Positions 391 through 25,715 of a stretch of DNA of 64,000 nt are shown piece after piece. The stretch covers positions 12,667 through 76,666 of the forward strand of contig JAVEZY010000006.1 of assembly GCA_034002745.1 (NCBI GenBank), given 5' to 3'. Every line of letters begins with the position of its first letter. Position 1 is the stretch's first letter. The notes beneath the pieces were generated by a model, which was not told the origin of the DNA, did no database searches, and saw only the letters and a program-made list of their open reading frames with translations. This DNA is from Gammaproteobacteria bacterium. Its GTDB lineage: Bacteria > Pseudomonadota > Gammaproteobacteria > SZUA-140. A program made the translations under genes and the position numbers.

Positions 391-466
<76 letters not shown>

Positions 467-7878: not shown

Positions 7879-9135
7879 TCAGCCCGGCAGCCACACCCGC
7901 GAGTGTGACATGCACTCGCCGACCGGAACGGTTTCCAGGATCTCGTCGCGATCGCCGTCGATGATGACGATTGCGCCAGCCTCGCCATTGGAGGAATAAA
8001 GCCGCAGGCCCCGATCCGTCCTGGCGACGGCCAGCGAGCCCGAGGCCGCGCCCAGCCGCAGCTCCCGCCGCAGCACCAGCCGTGGCAATGTGGTGAGGTC
8101 GACGATCAGCAGCGCATCGGACTTGAGATTGGCCTGCTGCTCCGGGCTGCCCGAACTGCCGGTGGTCATGAACAGCCGGGTGCCATCGGGATCGAAGTAG
8201 TACTTGCTGACATAGATGTCCGGCAGCGTCAGGCGATCGGCCACCGTCATGGTCTCCAGATCGAGCACGGTGAGATGGGCCATGACATGGGCGGGGTCCG
8301 ACTTGCGGTCAGCGCCGCGGCCGATGATGTAGCGCCCGCCCGGCACCATGAACAGGTTGCTGTGGCCCTTGAACGGTATGCGGTCCTCGATGCGGCAGCT
8401 GCGGGGATCGATTACCGCGATATTGCCGTAGCCGTTGTTGAGGTTGTACAGCTTGCCGGTCAGCGGGGAGAACACCAGCCCGTGCGGGAAAGCGTTGTTG
8501 GGGATTCCGCCGCGTCCACCCTCTTCGCGCTCGGGCTCGGACAGATCGATGGTGTCCAGCAAGCGCAGGAAATCGTCGCCCTCGGCGGGATCGTTGCCGA
8601 GCACCGATATCGAGCCATCCTTGAGGTTGCTGATCCAGGCGCGGCGCGGCACCTCGGGGGCGCTCGCCGTGGGCCGGGAAAAGCAGGCCTGATGATGACC
8701 ACGGCCGACGCAGATGGTCTTCAGGAAGCGGGCGCGCACACTGTCCACGTCCTCGATCACGGTCACCGAAGAGCCGCCATCGCCGCAGTTGAGGCGATCG
8801 TTGCCGGTCTCCTTGTCGCCGTCGTTCATGAACCAGCGACGCCTGGATTCCGGATCCTCGTAGATGTGAGCGGGAAAGGCATCGGCCGGGAAACCTTCCT
8901 GGGCACGGATTTCCTTGCTCTCCGGATCCAGCAGGATGACTTTCCGCTCCGGCGCATCCAGCCCGATGAAGACCGGCCGGAGTTCGGGCGGAAGGCCAGT
9001 TTCGGGCAGTGGGGGAATCGGCTCGATCCGCGTTTCGCCACCCTGGCGGCGAACCATCGCCAGACTGCCGGTCCGGCGATCGCCGGAATAATACGCCACA
9101 ACAAAATCGCCAGTTTCGTCAGAACGTTGTGTCAT
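7879..9135 (-). CDS. YncE/YVTN-like beta-propeller protein, no obvious signal peptide
   Basis: Repeated blade-like segments (GSSVTVIE, ICVGRGHH, DGSISVLG, FPHGLVFSP, GNIAVIDP, LTVLDLET, GAIVIIDG). Confidence 0.65.
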   Translation of the reverse strand: MTQRSDETGDFVVAYYSGDRRTGSLAMVRRQGGETRIEPIPPLPETGLPPELRPVFIGLDAPERKVILLDPESKEIRAQEGFPADAFPAHIYEDPESRRRWFMNDGDKETGNDRLNCGDGGSSVTVIEDVDSVRARFLKTICVGRGHHQACFSRPTASAPEVPRRAWISNLKDGSISVLGNDPAEGDDFLRLLDTIDLSEPEREEGGRGGIPNNAFPHGLVFSPLTGKLYNLNNGYGNIAVIDPRSCRIEDRIPFKGHSNLFMVPGGRYIIGRGADRKSDPAHVMAHLTVLDLETMTVADRLTLPDIYVSKYYFDPDGTRLFMTTGSSGSPEQQANLKSDALLIVDLTTLPRLVLRRELRLGAASGSLAVARTDRGLRLYSSNGEAGAIVIIDGDRDEILETVPVGECMSHSRVWLPG

Positions 9136-9576: not shown

Positions 9577-10941
9577 TCAGGAAACCCGGTTGAGCCCGTT
9601 GAGCGCCGCCACCCGGTAGGCCTCGGCCATGGTCGGATAGTTGAAGGTGGTGTCCACGAAATACCTGAGGGTATTGCCGGCGCCGGGCTGCGACATCACC
9701 ACCTGCCCGATATGGATGATCTCCGCGGCCTGGTCGCCGAAGCAATGGATGCCGAGGATCTCCAGTGTCTCGCGATGAAACAGGATCTTCAGCATGCCGG
9801 TCGTTTGACCCGAGATCTGCGCCCGCGCCAGATGGCGGAACAGGGAATGCCCCACCTCGTAGGGAACGCATTCCGCCGTCAGTTCGCGCTCGGTCCGTCC
9901 GATCGAACTGATCTCGGGCAGGGTATAGATTCCCGTGGGCACGCTTCTGAGCAAGCCGCCGGCATCGCCGCCCTGCAACAGGTGGGTGGCGGCGTAGCGT
10001 CCCTGATCGTAGGCGGCGCTCGCCAGATTGGGAGAACCTGTGATATCCCCGACGGCGTAGATGTGCGCGCGGGAGGAACGGTAACAGGAATCCACCCGCA
10101 CCAGCCCCCGCGCATCGGTTTCGACGCCGATGGCAGTCAGCCCCAGATCATCCGTATTCCCGGCCCGCCCCTGCGCCCACAGCAGGTAGTCGGCCCGGAT
10201 CAGTTTCTGCGACTTGAGATGCAGCGTGACACACTGATCGTCGGCCTCCGCGCGTTCGTACTCCTCATCGTGGCGGATCAGAATCCCCTGTTCGCGAAAA
10301 TGGTAGGACAGCGCATCCACTATCTCGTCGTCGAGGAAGGAAAGCAGCTGCGGGCGGGTATTGATCAGGTTCACCTTGATGCCGAGGTTGCGGAAGATCG
10401 ACGCATACTCGCAGCCGACCACGCCGGCGCCGTAGATGGTGATGGAACGCGGACTGTCGGTCAGCCCCAGCACGGTGTCGCTGTCGAGAATCCGCGGATG
10501 GAAAAAATCGATGTCCGGCGGATGAAACGGGCGCGAGCCGGGCGCGATCACGAAATTGTCGGCATGGTAGCGCCGCAGCTGGCCGCTGCCCGAGACCTCG
10601 ACGATGTGGTCGTCGACAAAGCGGGCATGCCCGGTGATGACATCGACGCGGTTGCGGTGATAGAAGCCGGTACGCATGTTCACCTGACGATCGATCACCG
10701 CGCGAGCGCTCCGCAGCAATTCGTCGAAGCGGGCGAGATCCTGACGCCCGGTCTGCACGAGTTGCTGTACCGCCTGGCGCAGCGCCTTGCTCGGAATAGT
10801 GGAGGTATGGGTGCAGTTGCCGCCGACCCGCGGCTTCTCCTCGATCACGGCGACCCGCCGGCCCCCCTTGGCCGCCTTCATCGCCGCGCCCTCACCGCCC
10901 GGCCCGCTGCCGATCACGATGACTTCGTATTTCTCGAGCAT
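9577..10941 (-). CDS. sthA: Soluble pyridine nucleotide transhydrogenase
   Basis: [14 protein letters not shown] motif, [31 protein letters not shown]-terminal [20 protein letters not shown]. Confidence 0.95.
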
Positions 10942-11038: not shown

Positions 11039-12202
11039 ATGAGCGAGATACGACACAAACGTTTACTGCGGCTGCTTGCGCAACCGACGGCGCCATTTCG
11101 CGAGACGCACGTCACGGCGCATATCGCCGCGACATTCGAACGACGCGGCGTACCTTTCTTCGAGGACCCCGCCGGCAACCTGGTGGTCGGCGCGGGTTCA
11201 GCCGCCGCGTACCGTCGCCTGCTGCGCGCACGCGACGGAGAGCCGCTGCGCCTGTTCATCGCCCACATGGATCATCCCGGCTTCCACGGGGCACGCTGGC
11301 TCGCGCCCAATCGCCTGGCCGTGCGCTGGCACGGCGGCTCACCGGTGCGTCATCTGGCGGGTACGCGCATGCGACTGGTGACCGATGAAGGTATCGTCGG
11401 CAACGGCAGACTGCAGCGACCCCGCATACGCGAAGGCGGCTGGGCGATCGATACCGCCGAGATCAGACTGGACGTACCGCTCGATCCGCAGCCGCGGGCC
11501 ACGAGCATCTACGGCGGCTTCGACTTTCGCGCTCCCGTATGGGAGTCCCGCGGGCGCATCTACTGTCCAGCGGCGGACGACCTGATCGGCGTCCACGCCA
11601 TCGTCGAAACCGCGCTGACCCTGTGGCGGGGCGGCAGGGACTCCGCCGCTCCATTCCTCGGCCTGCTCACCCGCGCCGAGGAAGTCGGTTTCGTCGGCGC
11701 CGTGGCTCATCTGGAACTGGGATGGCTGCAGCAACGCCGGCGCTCCGTGCTGGCGATCAGCCTGGAAGCATCCCGGGGCCTGCCGGGAGCTGAAATCGGC
11801 AAGGGTCCGGTGGTCCGCCTCGGCGACCGGCGCACGGTGTTCGATCCCTCCATGCTCGAGGCATTGAGCCAGATCGCGCGGCGCAGCCTTCCGCAACGGC
11901 ATCAGCGCAGGGTGATGGATGGCGGCTCGTGCGAGGCGACCGCGATGACGGCCTGGGGCGTACCGGCGGCGGGCATTTCGGTGCCGCTCGGCAACTATCA
12001 CAATCAGGGGCTGGATGGCGGAGACGATTTCAGGGCATCCGGGGGGCCGGCGCCGGAGTTCGTCAGTCGCCACGATGTGGAAGCGCTGGTGAAACTGTGT
12101 GCGGCACTCGCGCGCCCCGGACCGTCGTGGTCCGAGCCGTGGGCCGAGCAGCGTGCCAGGCTGCGCAAGAACCTGGTCAGATCGGGAAAGCTGTTGTCCT
12201 GA
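11039..12202 (+). CDS. M20/M28/M42-clan zinc metallopeptidase-like hydrolase
   Basis: Metal-ligand pattern AHMDHPGF, AADDLIG, RAEEVG, SLEAS, GNYHN. Confidence 0.75.
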   Translation: MSEIRHKRLLRLLAQPTAPFRETHVTAHIAATFERRGVPFFEDPAGNLVVGAGSAAAYRRLLRARDGEPLRLFIAHMDHPGFHGARWLAPNRLAVRWHGGSPVRHLAGTRMRLVTDEGIVGNGRLQRPRIREGGWAIDTAEIRLDVPLDPQPRATSIYGGFDFRAPVWESRGRIYCPAADDLIGVHAIVETALTLWRGGRDSAAPFLGLLTRAEEVGFVGAVAHLELGWLQQRRRSVLAISLEASRGLPGAEIGKGPVVRLGDRRTVFDPSMLEALSQIARRSLPQRHQRRVMDGGSCEATAMTAWGVPAAGISVPLGNYHNQGLDGGDDFRASGGPAPEFVSRHDVEALVKLCAALARPGPSWSEPWAEQRARLRKNLVRSGKLLS

Positions 12203-12274: not shown

Positions 12275-12481
12275 CTACTGCGCGGGAATGACGTTGGTTG
12301 CCTGTATCCCCTTCGCCGTATCCTCGGTCTCGAAGGTCACGCTCTGACCTTCCATCAGCGTCTTGAACCCGTCGAGCCTGATGGCCGAATAATGGACGAA
12401 TACGTCCTTCCCCCCGTCATCCGGAGTAATGAAACCGTACCCCTTCGACTGATTGAACCACTTCACCTTGCCTGTCGACAT
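12275..12481 (-). CDS. Cold-shock protein (CspA family)
   Basis: [18 protein letters not shown] (RNP1) and VFVHYSAI (RNP2); 68 aa. Confidence 0.95.
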
Positions 12482-12763
12482 AGAACCACCCCTCACTTGA
12501 AAAACGTACGAGCGATGCCGGTACCGTCTTCCACATCCCAGTGGCTTCCACCCTCCAGATCGGCGCAAGCGAGCAGCGAACGCCGCGTTCCAGTCTAGCA
12601 GCGTCCGGAACACCCGCCAACAGGTTCGTCACACGCCGCCGGCGCCGGGTTTTTCTCCCTGCGGCACCCGGCCAACCCTGAGCGCAAGCGCCCCACGAGA
12701 CTCTCATCCGCGACCGGCGCGGACCACTGTTAGCATCGCTGAACGACCTGTATCATTCGCGCC

Positions 12764-13519
12764 ATGGCAAGCCCCCTGGCGATCGACATACTTCCCCAGC
12801 CCGACGAAACCACCTGCGGACCCACCTGTCTGCACGCGGTCTATCGCTATTTCCAGGATGAAATGCCGCTCGACCAGGTGATCGATGGCATCCAGCGCCT
12901 CCACCATGGCGGCACGCTGGCAGTGTTCCTCGCTGCGCATGCGCTGGAGCGCGGTTATCGGGCAACGATCTACACCTACAATCTGGAGATGTTCGATCCG
13001 ACGTGGTTCGACGCGGATGGCAGCGTACCGGATATCGTCGACAGACTGCAGCGACAGGTGGAAGCCAAGAATGCGACCGAGTTCGCCGTGGCAACCGAAG
13101 GCTATGCCCGCTTCGCCGCCGCGGGCGGACGCCTGCGCTTCGAAGACCTGACCACCGGACTCATCCGCCGCCATCTCAAGCGCGGCATTCCGCTGCTCAC
13201 CGGTCTGAGCGCAACCTATCTCTATCACTGCGCGCGCGAACACGGTCCGCACTGCGAATACGACGACATTCGAGGCTATCCCAGCGGCCACTTCGTCCTG
13301 CTCGCCGGCTACGATTCGGAGACCCGTTCGGTGCTGGTCATCGATCCGCTGCACTCGAATCCGATGGCGCCCGGACACCACTACGAGATCAGCATCGATC
13401 GCGTCATCGGCGCGATCCTGCTGGGCGTTCTCACCCACGATGCCAATCTGCTGGTGATCGAGCCGGCACGCACCAGGCACTCCGCACACAGCCATGTCGA
13501 TATTCATCGTCGTCAATAA
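12764..13519 (+). CDS. Peptidase C39-like (papain-fold) protein
   Basis: QPDETTCGPTCL (Gln and catalytic Cys) and GHFVLLAGYD (His, Asp), VIDP. Overlaps the downstream gene by 26 bp. Confidence 0.8.
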   Translation: MASPLAIDILPQPDETTCGPTCLHAVYRYFQDEMPLDQVIDGIQRLHHGGTLAVFLAAHALERGYRATIYTYNLEMFDPTWFDADGSVPDIVDRLQRQVEAKNATEFAVATEGYARFAAAGGRLRFEDLTTGLIRRHLKRGIPLLTGLSATYLYHCAREHGPHCEYDDIRGYPSGHFVLLAGYDSETRSVLVIDPLHSNPMAPGHHYEISIDRVIGAILLGVLTHDANLLVIEPARTRHSAHSHVDIHRRQ

Positions 13520-14963
13520 CCCCGAAGACTGGCCGCTCCAGATACACGGCGCCGAAGTGGTCGCCGCCAAAACCTATCTCTCCGACCCGCGGTTCATCGA
13601 TCTGCGTGGAGTGAAGGTCTTCAATCTGTCGCGCTCATACCGCTACCAGAGCCTGGGCTATTACGTGTCCCTGCTCGCCGAGGCGCGCGGGCACAAACCC
13701 CTGCCGAGCGTGAACACCATCCAGGACATGAAGTCGCAGACCATCACCCGCTTCGTGTCCGATGATCTGTTCGAACTGATCCAGAAGAACCTGGCACCGA
13801 TCCGGTCCGAGGAATTCGTCCTCAGCATCTACTTCGGACGCAATCTGGCGCGGCGCTACGATCGCCTTTCCCGCAGCCTGTTCAATCTGTTTCCGGCGCC
13901 GCTGTTGCGCGCCCGCTTCATCCGCACCCGATCCTGGCAATTGCAGAGCATCGGGCCGATCGCCGCCAGCGAAATTCCGGATGATCACCAGGCCTTCGTC
14001 ATCGAGGCGGCAAGCGAATATTTCGCCGGCAAGCGTTCGCGACGCCGTGAACCGCAGGCCGAACGCTACGATCTCGCCATTCTCCACAACCCCGAGGAAG
14101 CACAGCCGCCCTCGGACGCCGCCGCGCTGCGCCGCTTCGTCCGCGCGGGGCGCCAGCTCGGCTTCGCGGTCGAAATGATCACCCGGAACGACTATGGCCG
14201 TATCGCGGAGTTCGACGCGCTGCTCATCCGCGAGACCACCGGCGTCAACCATCACACTTACCGCTTCGCGCGCCGTGCCAAGGCCGAAGGCCTGGTGGTG
14301 ATCGATGATCCCGGATCGATCCTGAGGTGCACCAACAAGGTCTACCTCGCCGAACTGATGCAGCGGCACCGCATCCCGGCACCGCGCACCACCATCGTGA
14401 ACCGCGGTAACATGAGCGCGATGGCGGCCGGCTTCGCCCTGCCCTGTATTCTCAAGCAGCCCGACAGCGCCTTCTCGCAGGGCGTGATCAAAGTCGAGAC
14501 CCGCGCCGAGTTCCTGGCCCAGGCCGCGCGACTACTGGAAAAATCGGAACTGATCATTGCCCAGGAATTCATGCCCACCGCCTTCGACTGGCGCATCGGC
14601 ATCTTCGATCGCAAGGCGATCTTCGCCTGCAGGTACTACATGGTGGGTGGTCACTGGCAGATCATGCAGCATGGCCCCGAGGGTCGCCCGCGCGAGGGCC
14701 GTGCCGAAACCGTGCCGCTGGCGCAGGTTCCGGCGCACGTCGTATCGACCGCACTCAAGGCGGCGAACCTCATCGGCAAGGGTCTTTACGGCGTAGACAT
14801 CAAGGAGATCGATGGCCGCGTCTACGTGATGGAAGTGAACGACAACCCCAACATCGATCATGGCATCGAGGACGCCGAGGGCGGAAACGAACTCTACATG
14901 ACGATCATGCGCGGCATGCTGGCCCGCGTCGAGGAGCGAAAGGGTGAAAGACGGCCACGCTGA
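13494..14963 (+). CDS. RimK-family ATP-grasp ligase with N-terminal RLAN domain
   Basis: The N-terminus NLSRSYRYQSLGYYVSLLAEARGH is RLAN-like. ATP-grasp motifs NKVYL, ILKQPDSAFSQGV, QEFMP, YGVDIK, EVNDNP. Confidence 0.9.
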   Translation: MSIFIVVNNPEDWPLQIHGAEVVAAKTYLSDPRFIDLRGVKVFNLSRSYRYQSLGYYVSLLAEARGHKPLPSVNTIQDMKSQTITRFVSDDLFELIQKNLAPIRSEEFVLSIYFGRNLARRYDRLSRSLFNLFPAPLLRARFIRTRSWQLQSIGPIAASEIPDDHQAFVIEAASEYFAGKRSRRREPQAERYDLAILHNPEEAQPPSDAAALRRFVRAGRQLGFAVEMITRNDYGRIAEFDALLIRETTGVNHHTYRFARRAKAEGLVVIDDPGSILRCTNKVYLAELMQRHRIPAPRTTIVNRGNMSAMAAGFALPCILKQPDSAFSQGVIKVETRAEFLAQAARLLEKSELIIAQEFMPTAFDWRIGIFDRKAIFACRYYMVGGHWQIMQHGPEGRPREGRAETVPLAQVPAHVVSTALKAANLIGKGLYGVDIKEIDGRVYVMEVNDNPNIDHGIEDAEGGNELYMTIMRGMLARVEERKGERRPR

Positions 14964-16215
14964 ACCGGCCGGTCTCGGCCTGTTCGAGGCCTACGGAATC
15001 GAGATCGAGTACATGATCGTCGATGCCGGAACACTCGACGTCCTTCCCGTCACCGACCGGGTGATGCACGCCATGGCCGGCGACTATGTCGACGAGGTCG
15101 AGGCCGGCGCACTGAGCTGGTCGAACGAGCTGGCACTGCATGTCATCGAGCTGAAGACCAACGGCCCGGCGCCGGTGCTCGATGGTCTCCACAGTGCCTT
15201 CCAGGCAGACGTCGCGCGCATCAACGCGCTGCTGCGTGATTCCGGTGGTCGGCTGATGCCGACGGCAATGCATCCCTGGATGGACCCGGCGCGCGAAACC
15301 CGGCTCTGGCCCCATGCGCACAGCCCGGTCTACGAAGCCTTCGACCGCATTTTCGACTGCCGTGGACATGGCTGGTCCAATCTGCAGAGCATGCACATCA
15401 ACCTTCCCTTCCGCGGCGACGGCGAGTTCGGCCGCCTGCATGCGGCGATCCGTGCGGTACTGCCGCTGCTGCCGGCGCTCGCCGCCAGTTCGCCACTGAT
15501 GGAAGGCCGGCTCACCGGGACGCTCGACAGTCGCCTCGAAGTCTATCGGGACAACGCGCGCCGCATTCCCTGGGTCACCGGCATGGTGGTGCCGGAGCCG
15601 GTGTATACACGTGCGGACTATGAGAATGAGTTGCTCGGCCGCATCTATCGGGATCTGGCGCCGCACGACCCCGGCGGCCTGCTGCGCCACGAATGGGTGA
15701 ACGCGCGCGGCGCGATCGCCCGCTTCGATCGCGATGCCATCGAGATCCGGGTGCTCGACACCCAGGAATGTCCGGCATCGGACCTCGCGCTCGCGCGCCT
15801 GATCGTCGCGGTGGTGCGCGCCCTGACGGATGAAGCCTGGTATGGCATGCGTCAGTTGCGGGAACTCGACACCGCAGCGCTGCTCCATTCCTTCGAGCTT
15901 TGCGTGCGCGAAGCCGAGGATGCGGTGATAGCGGATCGTCTGCTGCCGCGGGTCTTCGGCTTTCCCGAGCGCGGCCGCTGCCGTGCCCGCGACCTGTGGC
16001 AGCATCTGCAGGAAACCCTGCTGCCCACTCCCGCGCCGGACGATGCCGCGATCTACCGGCTCTACCTGCGCCAGGGCACGCTGGCGCGGCGCATCACCCG
16101 CGCGCTCGCACAGGAAGGCGATGCGCGGGCGGAAGCACCGGACCGGGAAGCGCTGCACCGGATCTACGAGCGCCTGTGCCGCTGCCTCGAGCGCGGCGAG
16201 TCGTTCGTCGCCTGA
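14944..16215 (+). CDS. Glutamate-cysteine ligase family 2 (GCS2; carboxylate-amine ligase)
   Basis: GIEIEY, NELALHVIELKT, MHPWMDP, SMHIN, LAASSP, ARFDRDAIEIRVLD. Overlaps the upstream gene by 20 bp. Confidence 0.88.
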   Translation: MKDGHAEPAGLGLFEAYGIEIEYMIVDAGTLDVLPVTDRVMHAMAGDYVDEVEAGALSWSNELALHVIELKTNGPAPVLDGLHSAFQADVARINALLRDSGGRLMPTAMHPWMDPARETRLWPHAHSPVYEAFDRIFDCRGHGWSNLQSMHINLPFRGDGEFGRLHAAIRAVLPLLPALAASSPLMEGRLTGTLDSRLEVYRDNARRIPWVTGMVVPEPVYTRADYENELLGRIYRDLAPHDPGGLLRHEWVNARGAIARFDRDAIEIRVLDTQECPASDLALARLIVAVVRALTDEAWYGMRQLRELDTAALLHSFELCVREAEDAVIADRLLPRVFGFPERGRCRARDLWQHLQETLLPTPAPDDAAIYRLYLRQGTLARRITRALAQEGDARAEAPDREALHRIYERLCRCLERGESFVA

Positions 16216-16232
16216 GGAGGGCTATCCGGGAC

Positions 16233-16949
16233 ATGAAGCTGCTGCTCAGCTGCGAGCATGGCGGCAACCGGATTCCGGCGCGTTATCGCGAACTGTTCGC
16301 CGGCCATGAGGATCAGCTCGCCAGTCACCGCGGCTGGGATCCCGGCTCGCTCGAATGGGCGCGCGCGCTCGCGCGCCTGACCGAAGCGCCGCTGATCGAT
16401 GCACGCACCTCGCGCCTGCTGGTCGACCTGAACCGTTCCCGCCACCACGCGGCCCTGTTCTCTCCGCCGGTCCGGAGTCTTGCGCCGGCGGAACGCGCGC
16501 GCATCCTCGAGCGCTATTACCTTCCTCACCGCGACAGGATCGAAGACTGGATCGCGCAGCGCGTCCGCCGCGGCGACACCGTCCTGCACGTGGCCGTGCA
16601 CAGCTTCACCCCCGTATTCGAAGGCACCGAGCGCAATACCGATCTGGGCCTGCTCTACGATCCCGCAAGAGCATTCGAGCGTCGCCTGTGCGTTGCCTGG
16701 CAGACGGCGATCCGCGCGCATGACGCGGCGTTGCGGGTGCGCCGCAACTATCCCTATCGGGGCAATGCGGATGGTCTCACCACTCACCTGCGCGGCTGTT
16801 TCTCCGCGGAGTCGTACCTGGGCATCGAACTGGAGATCAGCCAGGGGCTTTTGACCCGGCCACCGGCCATGCTCGCCCGCACGATTGCCATCGCGTTGCG
16901 CTCCGTCACCGAAGTGGCGACCCGATCACGGAAACCCCGGGGACGCTGA
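16233..16949 (+). CDS. N-formylglutamate amidohydrolase-family protein
   Basis: LLSCEHGGN, SHRGWDPG, SRLLVDLNR, YYLPHR, VHSFTP, IELEISQ. Confidence 0.88.
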   Translation: MKLLLSCEHGGNRIPARYRELFAGHEDQLASHRGWDPGSLEWARALARLTEAPLIDARTSRLLVDLNRSRHHAALFSPPVRSLAPAERARILERYYLPHRDRIEDWIAQRVRRGDTVLHVAVHSFTPVFEGTERNTDLGLLYDPARAFERRLCVAWQTAIRAHDAALRVRRNYPYRGNADGLTTHLRGCFSAESYLGIELEISQGLLTRPPAMLARTIAIALRSVTEVATRSRKPRGR

Positions 16950-16988
16950 CGATAATAGGCACATCGGTAGTAGAGACCAGGAGGTCCG

Positions 16989-17819
16989 ATGTCGCAGCCC
17001 AGCACACACCCCGCGCCGGCCGGAACCGGCGAAGGGAATTTCGATACCGAATCGCCGTCACGCGCCACTGAACCGGAGGAACTCGCCGAACTGTTCCAGG
17101 TCAGTCATCCTCGCCTGCAGTCCGCGCACTACACTCTGTTCAATGGCCACTATATTTCGGTGCATCGCAAACGCCCGTTCCGGCGCGCACAGCGCTATTG
17201 GCTGAATCTGACCTATCTGGATCCCACGCCGCACCTGGTTACCATCGCCGACCGGCGCTGGCTGTACCTGGCCATCGGACTGGGGATGGCAACCGGCATG
17301 CTGCTCACCGCAAGCGCCTGGTCACCGACACCATGGCATCAGCAGGCGTGGATGCCCGGAACGATTCTGCTGCTGAATGGTGCGCTGCTGTCGCTGCTCA
17401 TCTTCTTTCAGCGCTCGCAGAACCTGGTCCGCTTCCACAGCCGCCACGGCGACGCGGTGCTGCTGGAACTGGCGAACAACTCACCGTCGCGCGCCGAATT
17501 CCGCGACTTCATGCGCACGCTGCTGCACCGCATCCAGACTGCGCACCGGGACCATCCGCATCGCAGCCAGCGCCGCCTCGGCGCCGAACTGGTCGAACAT
17601 CGCCGCCTGTTCGAGGCCGGCCTGATCGACCGGGACTCCTATGATCGCGCGCGAGAAAAGATCCTGCGCAAGCATCGCCAGGCCCATGTCACTCCCGGCG
17701 CGAAGAAGAACCAGGCCACGCCCGGAAAAGCCGAAGTCGTCGGCATCACGGTGGCCGAGATCTCACGGCCCGCGGCAGAGCGTATCGAACTGTTCGAACA
17801 GCGGCGCTCGGTGGGATGA
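16989..17819 (+). CDS. Hypothetical two-TM membrane protein with SHOCT-like C-terminal motif
   Basis: Two hydrophobic helices. ELVEHRRLFEAGLIDRDSYDRAREKIL resembles SHOCT. GGAGG RBS upstream. Confidence 0.65.
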   Translation: MSQPSTHPAPAGTGEGNFDTESPSRATEPEELAELFQVSHPRLQSAHYTLFNGHYISVHRKRPFRRAQRYWLNLTYLDPTPHLVTIADRRWLYLAIGLGMATGMLLTASAWSPTPWHQQAWMPGTILLLNGALLSLLIFFQRSQNLVRFHSRHGDAVLLELANNSPSRAEFRDFMRTLLHRIQTAHRDHPHRSQRRLGAELVEHRRLFEAGLIDRDSYDRAREKILRKHRQAHVTPGAKKNQATPGKAEVVGITVAEISRPAAERIELFEQRRSVG

Positions 17820-25630: not shown

Positions 25631-25715
25631 TGGTGCGCAGGGAGAGACTCGAACTCTCACAGGTTGCCCCACTGGTACCTAAAACCAGCGCGTCTACCGA
25701 TTCCGCCACCTGCGC
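25631..25715 (-). tRNA. tRNA-Leu (anticodon TAG)
   Basis: Minus strand GCGCAGGTGGCGGAATCGGTAGACGCG-CTGGT-TTTAGGT-ACCAG, long variable arm, GTTCGAGTC…GCACCA; 85 nt. Confidence 0.97.

Follow-up and report, generated by a model that had tools for sequence, protein, structure and literature searches.

What does a bacterium gain from an operon that pairs two amide ligases with two hydrolases? This question is raised by a 64,000-nucleotide stretch of DNA from a Gammaproteobacteria bacterium (GenBank assembly GCA_034002745.1, contig JAVEZY010000006.1, positions 12,667 to 76,666 of the forward strand), hereafter called the window, in which five open reading frames (ORFs) follow each other in a row on the + strand. 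The first (12764-13519, 251 residues) encodes a C39-like enzyme, i.e., a cytoplasmic cysteine peptidase or transacylase of the papain-fold C39 clan, and the second (13494-14963, 489 residues) an RLAN-RimK ATP-grasp amide ligase. The third (14944-16215, 423 residues) encodes a carboxylate-amine ligase of the GCS2 family, predicted to be a gamma-glutamyl ligase, and the fourth (16233-16949, 238 residues) an FGase-fold amidohydrolase. The fifth gene (16989-17819, 276 residues) is a neighbour outside the conserved cassette. The C39-like and RimK genes overlap by 26 bp and the RimK and GCS2 genes by 20 bp, while 17 bp separate GCS2 from FGase and 39 bp separate FGase from the fifth gene, exactly the spacing given in an earlier annotation of this DNA (the original prediction). 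The exact sequences of all five proteins are also contained in the public gene calls. The answer that we favour, with a probability of roughly 45%, is that the four-gene cassette may make and recycle a small glutamate-containing peptide: GCS2 would gamma-glutamylate an amine, RLAN-RimK would add a C-terminal glutamate, and the two hydrolases would turn the product over.

The first evidence comes from the recurrence of the cassette. A pattern scan of one genome per species yielded 80 loci with a close RLAN-RimK, which shares 52-66% identity across phyla. As labelled in the records, these loci belong to Pseudomonadota, Planctomycetota, Nitrospirota, Nitrospinota, Acidobacteriota, Desulfobacterota, Myxococcota, Bacteroidota, Balneolaceae, Verrucomicrobiota, Spirochaetota, Gemmatimonadota, Fibrobacterota and others. 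Searching them by tblastn with the window proteins, we found C39-RimK-GCS2(-FGase) in the order of the window almost everywhere. Where both sides offered enough room (65 loci), all four genes were present in 43, C39-RimK-GCS2 in 16, RimK-GCS2 in three and RimK only in three. Under a stricter flank requirement, the C39-like gene accompanied the ligase in 49, GCS2 in 52 and FGase in 40 of 54 loci of different species, again in the window's order. This order is kept beside unrelated flanks in 37-43 genomes of more than ten phyla, and the complete cassette also lies beside two sampled divergent RLAN-RimKs of 44-45% identity. With species-level genomes from so many phyla repeating this order amid unrelated flanks, chance falls far short of explaining the arrangement, and the four genes are a real unit. 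The original prediction had grouped two ligases with two hydrolases and had named a lack of co-conservation as its refutation; the loci of more than ten phyla bear the grouping out.

No further gene belongs to this unit. The fifth protein gave no match by tblastn at the 80 loci, and of the two genes upstream of the cassette, encoding an M42 peptidase and csp, neither had a counterpart there save for one distant csp match. All three recur only in relatives that are ~93% identical and share the entire synteny. The original prediction had counted the fifth gene in as a SHOCT membrane protein. Hydrophobic stretches are indeed visible by eye, but the SHOCT match (PF09851) is sub-threshold (E = 0.029, 14.6 bits against a cut-off of 27, residues 205-226, ~17601-17666), so that only four of the five proposed domain labels are confirmed by Pfam, and with 0 of 80 loci the gene is a lineage-specific neighbour. 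When the surrounding ORFs of at least 80 residues were clustered de novo, no further conserved gene emerged, only generic families or off-frame artefacts. Conserved ORFs of 25-100 residues in or beside the cassette at the 80 loci were likewise limited to low-complexity matches or small clusters without a consistent position. No adjacent target or carrier protein, large or small, is therefore indicated. The divergent intergenic region between csp and the cassette (12479-12763, 285 bp) differs from its ~93% identical relatives by indels of 6 and 17 nt, and thus hides no small gene. Together with the clustering, these indels uphold the earlier remark that no precursor peptide gene is visible. Two known kinds of system can be set aside on these grounds. 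A LysW/LysX carrier system would need a conserved ORF of 25-100 residues, which none of the 80 loci provides, and the LysX model gives 52.7 bits against a cut-off of 275.6. A graspetide or other cluster for a ribosomally synthesised and post-translationally modified peptide (RiPP) lacks its conserved small ORF, and the upstream spacer carries non-triplet indels between close relatives.

The domain assignments of the four proteins are robust, and their active-site residues are invariant across phyla, in agreement with the earlier statement that the catalytic motifs look intact. In NCBIfam, all four remain below the curated equivalog cut-offs. None of the five matched a PADLOC model of anti-phage defence either, and a defence-system reading was dropped for this reason. 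The GCS2 protein covers 286 of 291 positions of its Pfam model (104.7 bits), and its invariant residues include Glu20, Glu22, His66 and Glu69. Its best NCBIfam model is the YbdK-type subfamily TIGR02050 (57.2 bits against 176.4), while the GshA and EgtA models score 18-47 bits against cut-offs of 249-427; matches of its profile to solved structures, to plant glutamate-cysteine ligase and YbdK, are weak and marginal. The FGase-fold protein scores 97.3 bits in Pfam, with no NCBIfam family at E <= 0.01, and retains His9, Asp36, Asn67, Arg68, His123 and Glu201 as invariant residues. A mechanical ORF list starts this protein at a TTG at 15900. We take the ATG at 16233 as its biological start, because position 2 of the Pfam FGase model falls on this codon and the 238-residue form equals the public gene call. 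The nearest solved structure is Atu2144 (2odf, E = 3.8e-27), a protein of uncharacterised function.

Judged from their Pfam names only, GCS2 could be a glutamate-cysteine ligase and FGase the HutG of histidine degradation, two pieces of ordinary metabolism lying side by side by chance. The original prediction would have fallen with both identities, but the data speak against them. The best GCS2 score of 57 bits stands against NCBIfam cut-offs of 176-427, so that the GshA and EgtA equivalogs are missed widely, and no curated HutG model is matched. As no other gene recurs beside the cassette across genomes, there is no room for conserved hut neighbours, and hut-type domains are absent near the cassette in an annotated relative. 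HutG was rejected as an identity on these grounds. Since the four genes are moreover packed with overlaps or minimal gaps and are kept together across phyla, ordinary metabolism is already contradicted, and we regard it as very improbable.

In the RLAN-RimK protein, Pfam detects RLAN at residues 25-171 (~13566-14006, 160.9 bits) and RimK at residues 281-455 (29.6 bits), both above cut-off, with the ATP-grasp part as a whole spanning ~14202-14882 (+). The ATP- and Mg-binding residues Lys321, Gln357, Asp365, Arg367, Asp435, Glu447 and Asn449 are invariant, as are many residues of the RLAN domain. All NCBIfam models stay below their cut-offs, namely rimK_fam (TIGR00768, 55.6 against 143.4 bits), LysX and MptN (52.6 bits); the S6-ligase equivalog of RimK (NF007764) gives 29 bits against 331. 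The C-terminal ~300 residues superpose on RimK, LysX and ArgX with template modelling (TM) scores to the target of 0.76-0.83, in a fold search that was dominated by the ATP-grasp part of the model. The family is large: one search gave more than 8,000 close homologues, and the RLAN domain alone has 791 representatives at 50% clustering, of which the full-length ones are mostly RLAN-RimK proteins of ~490 residues.

A second type of cassette around the same ligase sheds light on the logic of the first. In Azospirillum brasilense (L085, 4763-5989), a GNAT domain is fused to DUF3335, another C39-like family (280.9 bits), in a gene directly upstream of RimK that ends in overlap with the RimK start. 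With the Azospirillum-type ligase as seed, a metagenome scan delivered 80 further loci (L097-L176), of which 39 had enough flank. GNAT was adjacent in 34 of these 39, DUF3335 in 26 and the AstE/AspA-like DUF2817 in 10, while GCS2, FGase and the window-type C39 gene were adjacent in none. The GNAT-DUF3335 gene of this sister type lies directly upstream of, or divergent from, RLAN-RimK, with the DUF2817 gene between them in about a quarter of the loci. Conversely, GNAT occurred in two of the 54 window-type loci, both lacking GCS2, so that the two were never found together (0 of 93 loci, 54 window-type and 39 sister-type). We therefore read GNAT and GCS2 as alternative N-capping enzymes, and, as judged from the families, two unrelated amine-acylating enzymes appear to fill one slot. 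A GNAT had been described as frequent in such operons and missing here. It is indeed absent, but this is no oddity, since GNAT and GCS2 exclude each other.

Thus, both parallel cassette types are built around RLAN-RimK as their constant element, with a C39-clan cysteine enzyme at its side in each, and four slots can be distinguished: the constant RimK-type ligase, a near-constant papain-fold enzyme, one amine-acylating enzyme (GCS2 or GNAT) and an optional amidohydrolase of the FGase, AstE/AspA or DUF2817 type, or an Ntn hydrolase. Loci without a window-like FGase illustrate the last slot, with a divergent FGase after GCS2 in L048 and L050, a GATase_4 Ntn hydrolase beside the cassette in L003 and an AstE/AspA-like enzyme in L053. 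Further variants combine RLAN-RimK with a GlnA-like ligase and Peptidase_C26, followed by an M17 aminopeptidase (L092, 1177-6554), or RimK-GCS2 with Peptidase_C26, of the gamma-glutamyl hydrolase family, two genes upstream (L090, 1921-6836). Single-chain GNAT-RLAN-RimK fusions also exist, one of which adjoins a CitMHS/DcuC-type carboxylate transporter, a neighbour that we count in favour of a small-molecule product. As judged from their families, the replacement partners (GlnA-like, Peptidase_C26, GATase_4, AstE/AspA-like and M17) point to small-molecule glutamyl or N-acyl-amino-acid chemistry; the substrates of named members of these families are N-acyl or gamma-glutamyl compounds in free form.

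The graded gene content, from RimK through RimK with GCS2 to the addition of C39 and finally FGase, resembles the logic of a synthetase, a depolymerase and a dipeptidase, and would suit a storage or protective polymer on the model of cyanophycin. RimK would then build an alpha-polyglutamate backbone from free glutamate, GCS2 would decorate or cap it via gamma-carboxyl or amine links, the C39-like enzyme would depolymerise it and the FGase-fold enzyme would split the fragments. Such a polymer needs no template or target gene, and in vitro, E. coli RimK polymerises free glutamate into poly-alpha-glutamate, according to paper titles and abstracts and the title of PDB entry 5zct. The sister type, however, has C39-like enzymes without GCS2, which breaks the nesting, and homology to cyanophycin synthetase is weak and does not extend beyond the ATP-grasp fold. 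We consider the polymer improbable.

The cassette can be assigned to a kind of system that has been foreseen before. RLAN-RimK amidoligase neighbourhoods were reportedly predicted computationally by Iyer, Abhiman, Burroughs and Aravind in 2009 (Mol Biosyst 5:1636), and these neighbourhoods are said to set RLAN-RimK beside a GCS2-type COOH-NH2 ligase, a papain-like peptidase and an amidohydrolase, with a GNAT in related operons. In the window, RLAN lies directly N-terminal to a RimK-like ATP-grasp, and GCS2 and a papain-fold peptidase are adjacent in the same operon. The Pfam RLAN domain (PF14401) presumably derives from that 2009 work, and we take the window cassette to be that system. A 2023 classification of papain-like enzymes credits the GNAT-DUF3335 fusion to Iyer et al. 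2009 as well (PMC10318531). The window cassette is thus a typical member of a computationally predicted, uncharacterised kind; new here are the counts of co-conservation, the exclusion of the fifth gene, the absence of a neighbouring substrate gene, the mutual exclusivity of GNAT and GCS2 and the slot-by-slot parallel of the two types. Literature on Klebsiella CfmP was set aside as a precedent, as it concerns an unrelated TupA-like ATP-grasp.

The C39-like enzyme matches Peptidase_C39_2 (PF13529) with 43.3 bits against a cut-off of 24 and, as judged by eye, starts directly with the Gln/Cys catalytic motif. Gln12, Cys18 (codon at 12815-12817), His176 (13289-13291) and Asp194 (13343-13345) are invariant in 21 diverse homologues, and the homologues in total exceed 7,400. 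A structure model (predicted local distance difference test score of 79) falls into the papain/C39 clan by fold search. Its nearest solved folds are the C39 domains of PCAT/ComA, the pseudomurein isopeptidase PeiR and the Nostoc phytochelatin synthase, at TM scores of only 0.4-0.48, and structures of the transacylase CtaG rank lower among the matches. We ruled out a C39 leader-peptidase domain of an ABC exporter: the protein stands alone, the bacteriocin-processing family PF03412 scores 20.1 bits and thus below its 22-bit cut-off, the fold TM to such domains is 0.40-0.45, and no ABC transporter lies nearby. By analogy, the papain-fold enzyme could be a transacylase rather than an eraser or plain hydrolase. 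Phytochelatin synthase, for example, works as a transpeptidase. A proven transacylase that partners an ATP-grasp ligase is CtaG, which was assigned to the DUF3335 (PF11814) and BtrH families (PMC7183216).

This likeness opens the way to a cryptic secondary-metabolite pathway, either a graspetide-like RiPP made by ATP-grasp, GNAT and C39 enzymes, as in microviridin, or a peptide assembled independently of a non-ribosomal peptide synthetase through a papain-fold transacylase, as by CtaD/CtaG for closthioamide or BtrJ/BtrH for butirosin. An ATP-grasp ligase and a C39/BtrH-like transacylase build the closthioamide backbone, and as in the BtrJ/BtrH pair the papain-fold partner transfers the acyl group via its catalytic Cys; CtaG falls into PF11814, the family of the sister cassette (PMC7183216). 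CtaG structures do occur among the fold matches of the C39-like enzyme, and the graspetide ligase PsnB is a distant structural match of the RLAN-RimK model. Those pairs, however, are templated by a peptidyl carrier protein (PCP) and act within biosynthetic clusters, while the window cassette has neither PCP nor tailoring gene. Throughout ~170 loci, a precursor peptide, PCP carrier, ABC exporter, decarboxylase or tailoring gene was present in none, and this makes the pathway less likely. The cassette moreover lies in variable, housekeeping-like contexts rather than gene clusters, and its very high conservation across phyla is unusual for secondary metabolism. A pathway of this kind is in our view quite improbable.

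Returning to the small glutamate-containing peptide, we start from what was observed: the identities of the domains, catalytic residues that are intact, co-conservation, a nested gene content and partners replaced by functional analogues. From these we infer the substrates, step order, product and role. The simplest chemistry that uses all slots would cap the amino end, extend the carboxyl end and dismantle the product by hydrolases. In a first step, GCS2 would activate glutamate at its gamma-carboxyl and couple it to an amino acid or short peptide through the amino group of the latter, yielding a gamma-glutamyl cap, for which the GNAT of the sister cassette would substitute an acetyl cap. RLAN-RimK would then add at least one L-glutamate to the free alpha-carboxylate, giving an acidic gamma-Glu-X-Glu(n) reminiscent of glutathione or of N-acetylaspartylglutamate (NAAG). 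The papain-fold enzyme would attack this peptide with Cys18, His176 and Asp194 via a thioester intermediate, ending in hydrolysis or partial transfer, and the FGase-fold amidohydrolase would finally free glutamate from the remaining N-acyl-glutamate. The cassette would operate autonomously in the cytoplasm and is probably translationally coupled. As for its physiological role, our guess is a stress, osmotic or redox metabolite.

The original prediction had offered two options for a reversible write/erase system, glutamyl tagging of a protein and turnover of a metabolite. Of these, a small molecule is favoured because no target or carrier gene is conserved, because the accessory families handle small molecules, because precedents exist and because of the known GCS2 substrates; by their NCBIfam names, the characterised members GshA, EgtA and YbdK use free amino acids. 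Among the precedents, glutathione is made by GshA and the ATP-grasp GshB. The window cassette resembles this pathway in coupling a GCS-family gamma-glutamyl ligase with an ATP-grasp ligase that extends the C-terminus, although neither window ligase reaches any GshA or GshB cut-off. Glutathionylspermidine synthetase/amidase (Gsp) joins an ATP-dependent amide ligase to a papain-like cysteine amidase that reverses its action on a gamma-glutamyl peptide, and is thus a write/erase pair on a small molecule, but as one bifunctional protein with a CHAP-type amidase and a ligase of a different family. The phytochelatin-synthase-like enzymes offer a further parallel, in that the papain-fold enzyme resembles Nostoc Alr0975, albeit at a TM of only ~0.4; according to the titles of PDB entries, Alr0975 forms an acyl-enzyme with glutathione. 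The sister cassette, with its GNAT, RLAN-RimK and AstE/AspA-like DUF2817, is paralleled by the mammalian pathway of N-acetylaspartate (NAA) and NAAG, in which an acidic amino acid is N-acylated, glutamate is added and a zinc hydrolase deacylates. The acetyltransferase NAT8L makes NAA, and aspartoacylase, of the AstE_AspA family, removes it. To our knowledge, the mammalian ligases RIMKLA and RIMKLB, which occupy the middle position, are without an RLAN domain. Both are RimK-like ligases that couple glutamate to NAA or citrate (PMC3872778). The window cassette differs from this pathway in having GCS2 for GNAT and FGase for the AstE/AspA-like enzyme, and the likeness is one of family logic, with no claim of orthology.

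Several observations weigh against this reading. Among solved structures, the ATP-grasp part is closest to RimK, LysX and ArgX, whose substrates are protein C-termini, the C39-like enzyme has peptide-cutting enzymes as its nearest relatives, and the GNAT partner is most like RimI, an acetyltransferase of ribosomal proteins (58 bits, below cut-off). With its many invariant residues, the extra RLAN domain could be a protein-recognition module. One locus (L018) holds C39 and RimK without GCS2 within 2 kb, which together with the sister type contradicts a strict nesting in which C39 occurs only with GCS2. A comparison of the FGase profile with DUF2817/AstE-like profiles by hhalign gave no significant match (E-value 0.1), and we therefore treat the fourth slot as analogous and do not claim homology. 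The window-type cassette is accompanied by neither a conserved transporter nor a conserved regulator. Finally, a literature search on RLAN/PF14401, PA1345, DUF3335/DUF2817 and GCS2-FGase-RimK neighbourhoods retrieved no functional study of any member.

Some of these points would agree with a modification of protein or ribosomal-peptide ends. RLAN-RimK would in this case glutamylate, at its C-terminus, a conserved protein whose gene lies elsewhere, ribosomal protein S6 or a different one. GCS2 (or GNAT) would cap an amino group or link a glutamyl side chain, and the C39-like and FGase-fold enzymes would trim the tail, by analogy with RimB trimming for RimK and the carboxypeptidase-type deglutamylases of tubulin. 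The structural neighbours RimK, LysX and ArgX share C-terminal glutamates of proteins as their site of action, and RimK with a co-encoded protease is an established writer and trimmer pair in Pseudomonas (PMC11957791, PMC10092738). The fold of the C39-like enzyme is nearest to leader peptidases and an isopeptidase, the RimI-like GNAT fused to a C39-like domain fits a scheme of cleaving and then acetylating the new N-terminus, the highly conserved RLAN could dock a conserved protein, and a universal target would be compatible with the missing neighbouring target gene. On closer comparison with the RimK/RimB(/RimA) system of S6 polyglutamylation, the window cassette shares a RimK-type glutamate ligase that is co-encoded with a protease and whose ATP-grasp superposes on RimK (TM ~0.79). 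It departs from this system in the ligase, with ~20% identity, 29 against 331 bits and an additional RLAN domain of 175 residues, in the partner, a cysteine peptidase instead of a retropepsin, and in the added GCS2 and FGase genes. Furthermore, no carrier, tag or target gene is conserved nearby, RLAN-RimK is as near to the cofactor ligase MptN as to LysX and RimK, characterised GCS2, FGase, AstE/AspA, GATase_4 and C26 members act on small molecules, and the mammalian RimK-like enzymes take small acceptors (PMC3872778). End modification is a serious rival on this evidence, though we hold it to be less likely than the small peptide.

The family is large, strongly conserved and present in tractable organisms. 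Among these, Pontibacter, Planctomicrobium, Blastopirellula and Lentisalinibacter carry the window type, Azospirillum brasilense the sister type and Pseudomonas aeruginosa a lone ligase gene, and the slot-by-slot parallel of the two cassette types makes the chemistry testable. A small peptide as the product would amount to a new and widely distributed metabolite, possibly a compatible solute, a thiol or metal buffer, or a signal; if the substrate is a protein, the cassette would be a bacterial system of glutamylation and deglutamylation beyond RimK. Going further, we tentatively propose that the cassette is the source of an undescribed acidic gamma-Glu-X-Glu(n) of low molecular weight in more than ten phyla, or of phytochelatin-like oligomers should the papain-fold enzyme transpeptidate, with an N-acetylated counterpart from the GNAT type; in this specific form the proposal is rather unlikely. 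If true, it would define a new widespread class of glutathione- or NAAG-like metabolites with its own dedicated turnover enzymes.

Within the cassette, the 26-bp overlap (13494-13519, +) codes twice, for the tail ...HVDIHRRQ* of the C39-like protein and for the RimK start MSIFIVVNN. It suggests translational coupling of the two genes. The overlap recurs in many phyla, and in L009, L011, L013, L016, L021 and L034 the C39 match ends at 10008-10023 of the locus, where RimK starts at 10001. The conserved C-terminal motif HxDxxRRQ can be understood because the same DNA encodes the conserved RimK N-terminus MSxxIVVNN in another frame, and the overlap would thus be a small example of dual-coding constraint. 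For this reason we rejected the C39 tail as a substrate of the ligase. Two metagenome proteins from different lineages, P0218 (410 residues) and P0324 (318 residues), look like single-chain C39-like and RLAN fusions; these could be genuine, or could stem from frameshifts in the overlap region on short contigs.

The intergenic region upstream of the cassette is presumed to be its promoter region. It contains no match to the sigma-70 consensus, and no promoter or terminator consensus and no Rfam family, hence no riboswitch, was detected in or before the cassette. The csp gene on its other side lies at 12275-12478 on the - strand. On the 5' side of csp, the first ~75 nt of the spacer (12479-12553) are nearly identical in the ~93% relatives, while the remaining spacer has diverged with indels. 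This pattern fits a conserved 5' untranslated leader of csp. Beyond csp lies the M42-family peptidase gene (11039-12202, +; 58 bits in Pfam, no NCBIfam match). M42 peptidases belong to the cassette of the dipeptide osmolyte N-acetylglutaminylglutamine amide (NAGGN). Membership of this gene in the RLAN cassette was rejected, as the two are co-conserved only in close relatives.

Solo copies of RLAN-RimK occur in Nitrosomonas, Gallionella and Pseudomonas aeruginosa. The P. aeruginosa copy (L084, 5905-7494; 529 residues, 45% identical) is recorded on NZ_CP133752.1, a 'plasmid' named pZYPA1927, where ggt, pagP and the genes of the glutamate/aspartate ABC transporter share its block. The block looks like chromosomal PA1338-PA1347, i.e., either a chromosome-derived or misassigned replicon or a plasmid with captured chromosomal DNA. 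From the gene order next to pagP and aatJQMP, the Pseudomonas solo copy would be PA1345, which the PAO1 literature lists as a 'hypothetical ATP-binding protein' with a predicted CpxR site.

The base composition of the cassette is inconspicuous, its GC content resembling the remainder of the window. Long antisense ORFs of up to 417 residues overlap the cassette genes (14905-16158, 13635-14369, 12704-13570, all on the - strand, and similar ones); they cluster as seemingly conserved across loci because they shadow real genes in GC-rich DNA (~65%). Elsewhere in the window, an ORF of 418 residues (7879-9135, -) lies between genes for a TonB-dependent receptor and a soluble transhydrogenase-like protein, and its counterpart in a close relative (L081, 1939-3195) is without a Pfam family. 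The only Rfam matches in the 64 kb are two tRNA genes, at 391-463 (+) and 25634-25715 (-).

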